DNA of 41,681 bases from a virus (Duplodnaviria > Heunggongvirae > Uroviricota > Caudoviricetes). The stretch is taken from the IMG/VR virus record IMGVR_UViG_2606217106_000020, one strand, 5' to 3'. Numbering within the stretch: the stretch's first letter is position 1; every line of letters starts with the position of its first letter. This document shows, piece by piece, positions 3,001 to 6,000 of the stretch. Position numbers: made by a program.

Positions 3001-6000
3001 ATCTCTTTCGTCCATGGATTAAGGCCGTACTGGTTAGCGACGATCAGTAGTGCGATGAACTGGGCATCGCTGGCATCACCTTTAAATGCTGTCTGGCGAA
3101 GAGTGGTAATCAGTTCCTGTGGGTCGACAGAATCCATGCCGACACGTTCAGCCAGCTTCCCTGCCAGCGTTGCGAGTGCTGTACTCATCCGTTTTATACC
3201 TCTGAATCAATATTAATTTGGTGACGGGCGATGGTTTCAGCCATGTAGCGGATGTGTTCTGCCATGCGTTCCTGAAAATCGACATCGTCATCAAATGCAC
3301 GGGAAATAGCTTTTTTGCTGGCCCCGTGACGTTGCAGATTATCGATGCATAGCGATTCAAACAGGTGTTGGGGCAGACCTTTTTCCAGGTCGTCTGCCAG
3401 CTCAGCTTCAGTTTCTTCACGGGCAATTTGCTGGTAGTGTCGTGCCCATGACTGCTCTTCAATGCGATCGGGGATAAGCCAGGCATTCATGATTTATCAC
3501 CTCCGAAATTTTCAAGCCTGTTGGCAATCATGATGGCGATATCAGGGATTGCTGGCGCTGTGGCTATACATGCGGGGTTGGCGCACAAACCATAGACGGC
3601 TGCAATCACGAGCTGTCTTTTCCAGTCGAGAATTTCTGGTTCTGAATCAGCCTTATCGTCGGGCGCATTGTTGCCCTGAGCATTCCGGGCAACTGCCTCG
3701 AGTTCATGAGTTGTATCAGCGGAACTTTCCAGGACATCCGCTTGTGCTGAGTTCTCTTCAGCAGATGTGCCGTTTTCTCCAAAAATTTCAGCGTAAGTTT
3801 CATCTCCTATTACCGGACCGCAGTCAGGGCAGTTGCCCCCACCAGTCTGAGCACAGACGCGGCAGGATTTTTCCAGCTCCGGTTGTGCTACTGGCTCTGG
3901 TTGTTGCTCTGCTGGTCCGTTTTGTTGCGTATCCGGGCTGTTTTGTTCCGCTTCTGGCTCATTTTGTTCCACTTTGGATTGATTCTGGTCTTCAGTGTCG
4001 CGAGTCTGGATCCCCTTCACCCACTTCGGGTCGGTTGGGTCGCTGATACCTTCAACGAATTCTCCGCGAGAAGCCGCCAGTAATTTGTCGGCATCGACTG
4101 GATTTTTTGGGGGGATGTTTTCCCTGGCTTTATTGAGTTCCTCCCTCAGTTCCTGGTATTTCGTTTCTACAGATGAGACATTTTCCAGTGATTGCGTGTC
4201 CTCATTATGTTTAACTGGAATTTCTTCCACTGATTCAGGCGCTGCCTGTTCATTAGCCATTGTGTCCGATGTTTGTTGCTTTTCTTCATCGCCATGTTTT
4301 CCTTCTGCTGTTCCGCGCTGCGGCATCGGTGCTGATGAGCGACCGCAGGCAATTTCCACGATTTCCGGATCCGGGTTAGCGTGATCGGTTTCGGTCAACA
4401 CTTTGTTGAGATATTCAGTCACGCGTGCCGGGATGGCCTCAATGCCGATTGGTGCTTCTTTCACGGAAGCCACCACAATGGCGCGGGAATAATCCAGCCC
4501 ACCGGGCATGGCGATAAATTTGTCGCGAAAAACAGAAAAGGGCGGCTTATTCTCTGACACGATTTCTTCAACGCGTTTTGCGTGTGCTGGGTGCAGGTTA
4601 TAAATATCCACATCCATTGAACGGGCCAGAACGCCGGTGGCTACATCTCGTGCGAGTGATGTCTTATCATGTTTGAATCCTTCACCACGATCGGTAATAT
4701 TTCCGCCGCCAGCGTTAGCACCGGAAGGCGTACGGGTAATGCCTGAAACATAATTTCCGTTCTGCCATTCTTTTGTCAGCAGGCCCTGATCAAGGTAGTC
4801 AGTTTTCATCCAGGTGGAAATGAACTTGTCGAATTCAGCCGGGCTGATGCGATGATTTGCAGAGTGGGGGAATGCTTTCCCTACAGATTCAGCCAGGCGG
4901 CTAAGGTGATAATTCGTCAGCTTATCCAGCTCTGGATGTGAACGCACAGCAGTAAGCAGGCTCTGAAGGTAACTATCTTCTGTGTCCATCTCCAGACGGA
5001 TCACATTATTACGTTGTTCTGGTGTGGCGTGATGCCGGTATTTTCCATCTTTATCCTTGCTAAAGAAGAAGAGGTGAAGGAAACGATGGGTAAGACTGAG
5101 AGTGGCGACGGGAATTTCACAGTCAATACAGTCATCGTCGCTGTCTGTGGATTCGATTTTCTCCGCATTACCCGGAACAGCTCCGTCTGGGTCATCGTTG
5201 CCACCGTCAGCCGTTGTGGCATCTTCACCGTTGATGTTGTCATCGGAGGGTATAGCCATCATGGTGATGCCATCGTTACCGCCTTTTTCATAGCGATTAC
5301 AGAATTCGGTATCAAACACTCCTTCCGGTGGAAGGTCATTTACGACGGGCAAATGAACGCGAACAGGTTTTTTAAAGTCATCTTCATCGTAGCCCGCATC
5401 GTCAATCGCAACAGCACCACGAGAGATTGCAATGGATAATTTTTTCGCCTCAGCCCAGTAAAAACCGCCTTTAATGCCGAGGCGTTTTCTTACCTTGTCA
5501 TTTTTTGCTTCGTAATACAGTGGGTAAACTTGTTTATCAGTGCTCATTGTGTTTAAACCTCTGACTGGATAAAAATAAGCGCCCTTTTTGGTAGCCTGTG
5601 CTGCCGGATTTTTTATTTCAGTGAAATGCTTTCTTGTTTGCGGTTTTGGTGCTGGCCTGAGTCTGTTCGTGCTGGCATTCAGGGCAGTCACAGGTGCATT
5701 CACCATTCTCTCTGATAAGCTGAAGAGCCATTGCCAGTTCCAGTATTGCCTGTGGTTTAATTGTACTGTCGACAATTTCAGATGCTGCATGAATATATGG
5801 GCTGGAAGTTTCGCAATACAAACCGAAGGAAACAAAACGACTGTCCTTATATTCGTTAATTGCGATTTCTGTTAGCTCTGAAAATGAATAGACATAATCT
5901 ATCTTGTGTTTTTTGCATATTTCATTTATGCGTGCTGCGATTTCTTTAAGCTCATTTATTGCGTCAGGGCAGGATTCTGAGAACACTTCGTTCTGTGCGA

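Follow-up and report, generated by a model that had tools for sequence, protein, structure and literature searches.

The virus record IMGVR_UViG_2606217106_000020 of IMG/VR (Caudoviricetes), whose 41,681 nucleotides are referred to here as the window, carries on its minus strand a gene at 3487-5547 (whole coding sequence with stop codon) for a protein of 686 amino acids (aa). This protein is the subject of the present analysis, and we are nearly certain that it is a relative of RecE (exonuclease VIII) without a nuclease domain, of the RecE-2 or YdfE-like kind found in lambdoid prophages. The open reading frame (ORF) runs from an ATG at 5547 to a stop codon at 3487-3489, according to both the ORF list and the sequence. 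The same start was called by the Prokaryotic Genome Annotation Pipeline (PGAP) in E. coli TOE17, a prophage of which carries the gene at 100% DNA identity, its product, WP_032188272.1, being likewise 100% identical to the 686-aa protein. A longer reading from a TTG start (to 5835, 782 aa) was considered and rejected, as it overlaps the upstream gene at 5618-6010 and the homologues, which begin with MSTDK, lend it no support. The product has an isoelectric point (pI) of 4.64, with 122 aspartate and glutamate residues against 70 lysine and arginine residues, and its acidic stretches are the segments for which AlphaFold predicts disorder. An earlier note on this DNA had described an ORF of 686 aa, a very acidic product and the largest gene of the early region; the first is borne out by the ORF list and the PGAP call in TOE17, the second by the composition, and the third holds among the ORFs listed for the first 10 kb of the window.

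The identification was based on profile searches and pairwise comparisons. Residues 52-197 matched Pfam PF06630 (Exonuc_VIII) with 41.9 bits against a cut-off of 25; this was the only Pfam family matched in the protein, and likewise the only entry in its precomputed Pfam list. The NCBIfam profile PRK09709 aligned residues 1-613 with its positions 1-578 of 877 (758.3 bits, E 1e-227), and a match to PHROG 607 agreed with this placement. The view of the earlier note that no family could be assigned is therefore no longer tenable, since PF06630, PRK09709 and PHROG 607 all give RecE/exonuclease VIII. BLASTP aligned residues 48-599 with residues 40-555 of RecE from E. coli K-12 at 54% identity, the central part being nearly identical and a four-cysteine (Cys4) motif being shared. 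K-12 RecE, encoded in the Rac prophage (b1350, 866 aa), resembles the 686-aa protein in its PF06630 region, core, mid element, Cys4 motif and acidic linkers, and its gene occupies a comparable place in a leftward early operon, downstream of kilR. A nuclease-bearing relative of 1048 aa from E. coli 7_11_88A was found to be 86% identical over residues 1-591 and unrelated afterwards. Homology to a well-characterised recombination protein, which the earlier note had set against its own reading of the gene, was found in so far as RecE is such a protein, but the function of the matched part of RecE is itself called unknown or unclear by reviews, and the description of the gene as one without established function stands.

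The similarity to RecE stops short of the nuclease domain. In K-12 RecE this PD-(D/E)XK domain (residues 564/606-866) is the sole part with a solved structure and a known activity, whereas the 686-aa protein has a hairpin of 45 residues instead. The score of 758.3 bits lies below the curated equivalog cut-off of PRK09709 (1269 bits), by which functional RecE is recognised, because the last third of the profile (positions 579-877) has no counterpart in the protein. Pfam PF12684 (DUF3799), the family of the PD-(D/E)XK domain, was not found in the 686-aa protein, while K-12 RecE and the 1048-aa relative both matched it in the same search. The whole protein had no match when PDB was searched by sequence, and Foldseek with the full-length AlphaFold2 model gave none at E <= 0.001 in PDB and BFVD, although the long predicted-disordered segments of the model may lower the sensitivity of the fold search. 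Nor is the gene directly followed by recT, as recE is in K-12; gam, bet and exo are found there instead. Record names suggest another reading, in which the protein would be a true exonuclease: RefSeq and GenBank use 'RecE family exodeoxyribonuclease' and 'exodeoxyribonuclease VIII', the former being the RefSeq name of the identical TOE17 protein, and six phage records (four phages) that hold a full-length homologue at 86-90% DNA identity, always with gam adjacent, name the product 'exodeoxyribonuclease VIII' or 'exonuclease VII'. Such names are all that speaks for this reading, and they reflect the homology with RecE in its N-terminal part; the RefSeq name is misleading, given that the PD-(D/E)XK domain is absent. 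The DUF3799 search and the shortfall against PRK09709 both argue against it, as do the end of the alignment at RecE residue 555 and the last 90 residues, which are predicted to form a disordered linker and a two-helix hairpin. Since a nuclease domain was not detected, a role as exonuclease has no support, and we consider it close to excluded.

A nuclease-less class, RecE-2, has already been noticed in lambdoid Rec modules, with roles described as unknown, in the available passages of a recent paper (PMC12315714, Genome Res 2025). The 686-aa protein fits the description of RecE-2 given in those passages, the match being judged by that description and not by the paper's own sequence list. Specifically, it is homologous to RecE outside the nuclease domain, no nuclease was present among the fold matches of its AlphaFold model, and its gene has the early-left location of a Rec module.

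The AlphaFold2 model, which was run with a 59-sequence alignment, allowed us to propose a division of the protein into a folded body and a series of smaller elements between linkers; all coordinates given below for these parts lie on the minus strand of the window. The N-terminal body would be made of a small alpha/beta subdomain (aa 1-104, 5236-5547), which is part of the Pfam Exonuc_VIII region, and a large, mostly helical domain (aa 139-415, 4303-5133); for both, the predicted local distance difference test score (pLDDT) is largely above 90. They are separated by an acidic loop (aa 105-138, 5134-5235) that is predicted to be disordered (pLDDT <50). The 30-residue blocks 91-120 and 121-150 each have a net charge of -8, and the loop shows an identity of 0.64-0.68 among close homologues and a ratio of non-synonymous to synonymous substitution rates (dN/dS) of about 1.1 against the relative in locus L005. 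The most conserved core of the family, RTxSGAxAGGGNxTDR...MDFDIYN...PGxLDYSRA...LTETDHAxP...ACG, spans aa 263-412 (4312-4761) and is common to all architecture classes. Its identity to the query per 20-residue block is 0.87-1.00 among 111 close homologues, its dN/dS 0.06-0.16, and in an alignment of 34-85% overall identity (A3) it contains 20 invariant columns, many of them polar (T, D, R, Y, S, E, H).

These residues raise the question of whether the N-terminal body could have an enzymatic activity of its own, directed at DNA ends or at a host target, with a novel fold and active site and with the C-terminal modules as add-ons. The invariant polar residues fall in TDR, DIY, DYSRA and TExDH and are accompanied by a Gly-rich loop, SGAxAGGG; the core is under the strongest purifying selection of the whole protein, and the domain is confidently predicted to be folded. 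Similarity to known enzymes was found neither in sequence nor in fold, however, and the invariant polar residues would suit a binding surface equally well, their conservation having been read from the alignment and not from clustering in three dimensions. We therefore regard an enzymatic body as improbable.

Downstream of the body, a linker (aa 420-455) is predicted to be disordered and is followed by a conserved mid element (aa 456-513, 4009-4182) with the motif LLAASRGEFVEGISDPTDPKW, itself set between predicted-disordered linkers. This element has predicted helices at 457-476 and 486-493 and a dN/dS of 0.08-0.15, and it was found in K-12 RecE as well as in many diverged representatives. Two further segments with predicted disorder (aa 514-559 and 579-637) flank a Cys4 knuckle, C-R-V-C-x7-C-P-D-C (aa 562-576, 3820-3864), that lies inside the linker 110 residues from the C-terminus. 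The earlier note had called the product a zinc-ribbon protein with a CxxC-N8-CxxC motif; the spacer between C565 and C573 is in fact seven residues long, the motif being C562-x2-C565-x7-C573-x2-C576. The four cysteines are retained in 108-110 of the 111 close homologues, with variable flanks, and are present in K-12 RecE, but they are absent from most diverged members and confined to Escherichia-type sequences. The model of this region has ten-residue block means of pLDDT of about 54-61, with residues 570-572 below 50, and contains only isolated bridge residues. A conserved Cys4 motif is thus what stands of the zinc-ribbon claim; its absence in diverged members and the low model confidence mean that the term over-describes what is a small accessory element. 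The second of the flanking segments is a variable acidic linker (aa 579-637, 3637-3813; pLDDT <50) in which the similarity to RecE ends at around residue 599.

The protein ends in a conserved tail (aa 638-686, 3490-3636), a predicted helical hairpin in the place of the RecE nuclease domain. Over its 45-50 residues AlphaFold2 predicts two helices, 642-656 and 664-680, with pLDDT of about 77-85, and its consensus reads QQLTIAALQGLCANPA...DDIPxMA. An alignment of 22 diverged proteins, about 22-33% identical overall (one at 68%), gave the consensus LTYxQQLTIAALQGLCANPA-(5-6)-DDIPxMAxxLA, in which five positions never vary (A, A, G, N and P). Among the 111 close homologues, tail residues 641-680 have an identity of 0.98-0.99, against 0.47 for the adjoining linker (residues 601-640), and the dN/dS of the tail is 0.11-0.12 against two E. 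coli relatives with synonymous divergence (dS) >1. Comparison of a tail profile with PDB returned only noise (a spidroin at E 0.05 and designed helical repeats), and Pfam scans of 23 tail sequences yielded nothing meaningful. In a set of 5.8 billion proteins the profile found only fragments of 43-89 aa, probably the result of truncation or frameshifts near the ends of these genes, so that the tail was not seen joined to any other domain and occurred only at the end of proteins of this kind. The end of the protein is a conserved module and not debris.

We then consider how widely this architecture is spread. More than 100 close clusters at 90% identity contain proteins of 680-700 aa, and several genera across Enterobacterales have proteins that share the tail architecture at an identity of about 22-33%. 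Only 212 relatives were recovered from 1.84 billion representative proteins. Selection of one genome per species left 59 loci, nearly all of them titled as Enterobacterales genera (Escherichia, Citrobacter, Kluyvera, Klebsiella, Enterobacter, Lelliottia, Pantoea and Erwinia) and two being metagenome bins with other labels. Within E. coli, DNA of the tail region was present in 106 of 5,426 complete genomes, O104:H4 strains included, and a locus covering at least 80% of the gene in 82 of the 5,426. Nuclease-less proteins of this kind are also carried by Shiga toxin (Stx)-converting phage records and by O104:H4 prophages.

The N-terminal body is modular, being joined to a PD-(D/E)XK nuclease, to an Rv2179c-like 3'-5' exonuclease (PF16473), to the tail, or to a few other or unrecognised ends. 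Among 62 core-bearing representatives at 50% identity and of at least 450 aa, the tail was found in 21, the nuclease in 14, a DnaQ-like domain in 10 and another end in 17, the tail form being the most diverse class. The nuclease-bearing forms, which are the true RecE proteins, are nearly always followed by recT (about 30 species loci), and the PF16473 fusions by xis-int. Acidity is common to all three classes, with pI values of 4.4-5.2 and net charges of -15 to -75 in 37 representatives. The DnaQ-type fusions share with the 686-aa protein the N-terminal body, the acidic linkers and the position as last large gene before xis-int, but end in a DEDDh-type exonuclease of about 180 residues (PF16473) and not in the hairpin tail; they are labelled 'exonuclease' or '3'-5' exonuclease' in O157 and other prophages. 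DnaQ-like 3'-5' nucleases are also reported from lambdoid Rec modules in the available passages of PMC12315714, which make no mention of the tail motif or of the three-way module swap.

A number of individual members were observed in the course of these searches. A second prophage of TOE17 (locus L065, 42388-42501; record 2500387-2502858) has excisionase and integrase genes alongside a 2.5-kb gene for a '3'-5' exoribonuclease domain-containing protein', which, judged by its name, probably belongs to the DnaQ-type class of the family. P0124 (703 aa), from the search of representative proteins, has a PF06630 N-region joined to a RecT domain (PF03837, residues 528-678) and no nuclease by Pfam. 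In Pantoea osteomyelitidis (L014, 6383-10487) a core-bearing protein of 694 aa has a different, helix-rich C-terminus with no Pfam match, and its gene is followed by those for a Mu Gam-like end-protection protein and a ParB-like protein.

The diverged tail-bearing proteins provide a connection to YdfE. In precomputed tables, YdfE_N (PF27430) and YdfE_C (PF27432) are listed for three of them (P0187, P0210 and P0215). BLASTP aligned residues 238-680 of the 686-aa protein, comprising core, mid element and tail, with P0187 at 28% identity (E 1e-38), and hhalign matched the PF06630-type and YdfE-type N-regions over 196 columns with 92% probability (E 5.6e-7). P0187 aligned in turn with K-12 YdfE over about 215 residues (23% identity, E 3e-12); a direct BLASTP comparison of the 686-aa protein with K-12 YdfE gave nothing. 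Judged by these alignments, the 686-aa protein is homologous to the YdfE-type proteins across N-region, core, mid element and tail. The YdfE-type members differ from it in having no Cys4 knuckle and in not lying beside gam, and its own N-region is of the RecE (PF06630) sequence type. The ydfE gene of the K-12 Qin prophage (L072, 6079-6999) is a pseudogene truncated at IS2 and a diverged relative of the YdfE-type N-region. With recE in Rac and ydfE in Qin, K-12 therefore holds both a nuclease-bearing member and a YdfE-type pseudogene.

Substitution patterns bear on the possibility that the gene is a decaying remnant of recE, left without a function of its own after loss of the nuclease domain and of recT. 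In the N-terminal body and mid element dN/dS is 0.06-0.16, against 0.3-1.1 in the linkers, the exception being residues 139-262 with 0.57 against one mosaic relative. Residues 263-455 (window 4183-4761) show zero synonymous differences from the nuclease-bearing recE relative of E. coli 7_11_88A (L002, 7001-10147), while the flanks have a dS of 0.2-1.4 against the same gene. This contrast points to recent recombination between the two architectural classes, and exchange between them is ongoing. Such mosaicism might be expected of a remnant, as might rare rearranged forms such as P0124, in which a RecE N-terminus carries a RecT domain, and the truncation of ydfE in K-12. A remnant would hardly, however, keep an intact ORF under purifying selection that extends to the tail, nor would its architecture recur in proteins about 22-33% identical from several genera and make up the most diverse class of the family. 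We regard decay as very improbable and close to refuted: the nuclease-less form is conserved, selected and modular, and not a decay product.

The genetic context of the gene is that of an early-left operon. On the minus strand the order is an N-like gene, kilR, a 130-aa ORF, the 686-aa gene, gam, bet, exo and int. The product of gam (3194-3490) is the RecBCD inhibitor (Pfam PF06064, E 5e-65), and bet (2403-3188) and exo (1729-2406), together spanning 1729-3188, were recognised by the Pfam RecT-family and YqaJ matches and by the PGAP names in TOE17; bet and exo are the lambda Red annealing protein and 5'-3' exonuclease. The earlier note had placed the gene directly upstream of gam-bet-exo in a leftward early operon, with its stop codon overlapping the gam ATG, and both points proved correct, gam, bet and exo being Pfam-confirmed. 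At the junction (3487-3504, minus strand, from sequence) the letters at 3487-3490 (TCA TGA / ATG AAT) form an ATGA overlap of the stop codon (TGA, 3487-3489) with the gam ATG (3488-3490), and gam has a GGAGG of its own (3500-3504) nine bases upstream of its start. No promoter-like or minus-strand terminator-like site was found between the 686-aa gene and its neighbours; the nearest minus-strand terminator-like sites are at 6494-6520 and 8911-8932.

The coupling to gam proposed by the earlier note, seen in this phage as the ATGA overlap, is not a trait of the whole family. In E. coli loci of the tail class the gene is followed by gam and then by either bet-exo or an AAA_24 ATPase, so that the gam junction is kept while the recombinase is swapped. 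In one example, E. coli FDAARGOS_943 (L004, 2222-5539), a tail-bearing variant of 646 aa is followed by gam and an AAA_24-family ATPase, not by bet-exo; its ORF is intact, yet PGAP labels it a truncated pseudogene. Outside E. coli the next gene of the tail class encodes a protein of about 100 aa (phrog_11217) or is a DUF1187-type or unannotated ORF of about 67 aa that overlaps the stop codon, after which come xis and int, or xis follows directly. No gam, annealing protein or exonuclease was among the called downstream genes of the diverged tail-bearing loci, so that the protein does not require a phage recombinase or Gam. A general functional bond between the tail and lambda Gam was considered and is ruled out by Lelliottia and other genera without gam.

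The phrog_11217 protein, with the motif YAEFPDTLVTLELCRA, stands directly after the RecE-like gene in several genera (L013, 8013-8309; L038, 8417-8737; L049, 2651-2950; L010, 7772-8074). By tblastn it was also detected in other phages with genomes of 40-95 kb, among which are 15 records of Erwinia phages (about 49-76 kb). Its identity with a known anti-RecBCD protein was considered and is not supported, the phage records labelling it hypothetical.

The place of the gene next to gam invites the reading that its product is an anti-defence or host-takeover factor, whose acidic linkers or body act on a host nuclease or defence system, either as a DNA-mimic decoy or as an inhibitor alongside Gam. 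Apart from the early-left operon and the ATGA overlap with the gene of a RecBCD inhibitor, this reading could draw on the acidity that is maintained family-wide (pI 4.4-5.2) despite diverging linkers, and on diverged members that lack a phage recombinase, whose role would thus not be tied to Red or RecET. Acidic DNA-mimic anti-nuclease proteins, such as lambda Gam and those of the Ocr and ArdA types, are strongly acidic and expressed early, as is the 686-aa protein. In the latter, however, the acidity resides in predicted-disordered linkers and not in a rigid, DNA-shaped fold, and neither in sequence nor in fold did searches of PDB and BFVD reveal similarity to these mimics or to other characterised anti-defence proteins. 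PADLOC returned 0 families for the protein, but its library comprises defence proteins only and is uninformative on anti-defence. Moreover, two other classes carry this body in covalent fusion with DNA exonucleases, which points to DNA-end processing and not to inhibition, and in other genera the neighbours are genes other than gam. An anti-defence role is, in our opinion, doubtful.

Other genes of the early region were noted for themselves. Directly upstream of the 686-aa gene, the 130-aa ORF (5618-6010, minus strand) has a Cys-rich C-terminus, CTCDCPECQH, belongs to phrog_2016, has no Pfam match and occupies the position of racC/ydaE in the Rac prophage. At 7332-8045 (minus strand) lies the gene of a 237-aa phrog_2539 protein with a Cys-rich centre and weaker matches to endonuclease VII, HNH and Lar-like restriction-alleviation families. 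A 348-aa serine/threonine kinase (9098-10144, minus strand; phrog_2361, E 2e-142) is encoded next to the N-like antiterminator gene (8049-8432). The kinase belongs to the N-kinase-cI region of the window, which is 96.5% identical to Stx-converting phages, and the DNA match to the TOE17 prophage ends beyond about 7 kb of the window; the window is on these grounds a mosaic relative.

Based on these comparisons, we propose that the 686-aa protein may serve as an accessory, itself non-catalytic, to the DNA-end and recombination functions encoded in the early-left region. Its N-terminal body would have the same task as in full-length RecE, where the presence of this part increases recombination of one linear DNA molecule with another. 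The acidic linkers would serve as flexible tethers, and the C-terminal hairpin as an oligomerisation or docking element in place of the nuclease domain, with Exo, Bet and Gam supplying resection, annealing and end protection in trans. Two sister classes tether the same body to DNA-end nucleases through flexible acidic linkers, and the N-terminal part of RecE alters linear-DNA recombination; the probable target of the body is therefore the DNA end itself or a factor present at such ends. As the RecE nuclease domain forms a tetramer and Rv2179c is reported to be a dimer, one could speculate that all three C-terminal modules make the body multivalent.

Several observations weigh against this proposal. 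DNA binding, oligomerisation and any partner of the 686-aa protein are presumptions of the proposal. With no gam, annealing protein or exonuclease called downstream of the diverged tail-bearing members, the term recombination accessory may be too narrow. The 20 invariant core residues, many of them polar, form a pattern that also fits an enzyme active site, and the N-terminal body has no structural relative in PDB or BFVD, so that its fold gives no functional hint. Lastly, the effect of the RecE N-terminus in linear-linear recombination is known solely as a phenotype. Overall, the accessory mechanism taken by itself is a tentative suggestion, while for the identification as a nuclease-less RecE relative and the accessory mechanism combined in a single figure we arrive at a probability of roughly 0.55.

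A broader interpretation concerns the body of about 415 residues that RecE has in common with the YdfE-like tail proteins and the DnaQ-type fusions. It is conceivable, at somewhat under even odds, that this body is an autonomous machine of a fold not seen before, provided with interchangeable C-terminal modules, these being a 5'-3' exonuclease, a 3'-5' exonuclease or a bare oligomerising hairpin. Such a machine might, for example, grip DNA ends or sense their presence, or it might capture a factor of the host. The three-way exchange of modules on a common body would in any case make a tidy case of domain shuffling in phage recombination modules. There is also a consequence for annotation, as more than 100 clusters are named 'exodeoxyribonuclease VIII' or 'RecE family exodeoxyribonuclease' although no nuclease domain is detected in them.

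Direct cloning makes standard use of full-length RecE. In reviews (PMC11611040; PMC11610958), what the N-terminal part of about 600 residues does in RecE is described as unknown or unclear, and a 2026 paper on RecE truncations in mammalian cells contained nothing usable on the N-terminus. Natural proteins that retain only this part, and that are under purifying selection, suggest that it has a role of its own, and they offer a clean system for studying it without the nuclease. If the body is indeed autonomous, the nuclease-less form encoded in the window would be its minimal natural version and a direct way into the role that the first 600 residues have in RecE.

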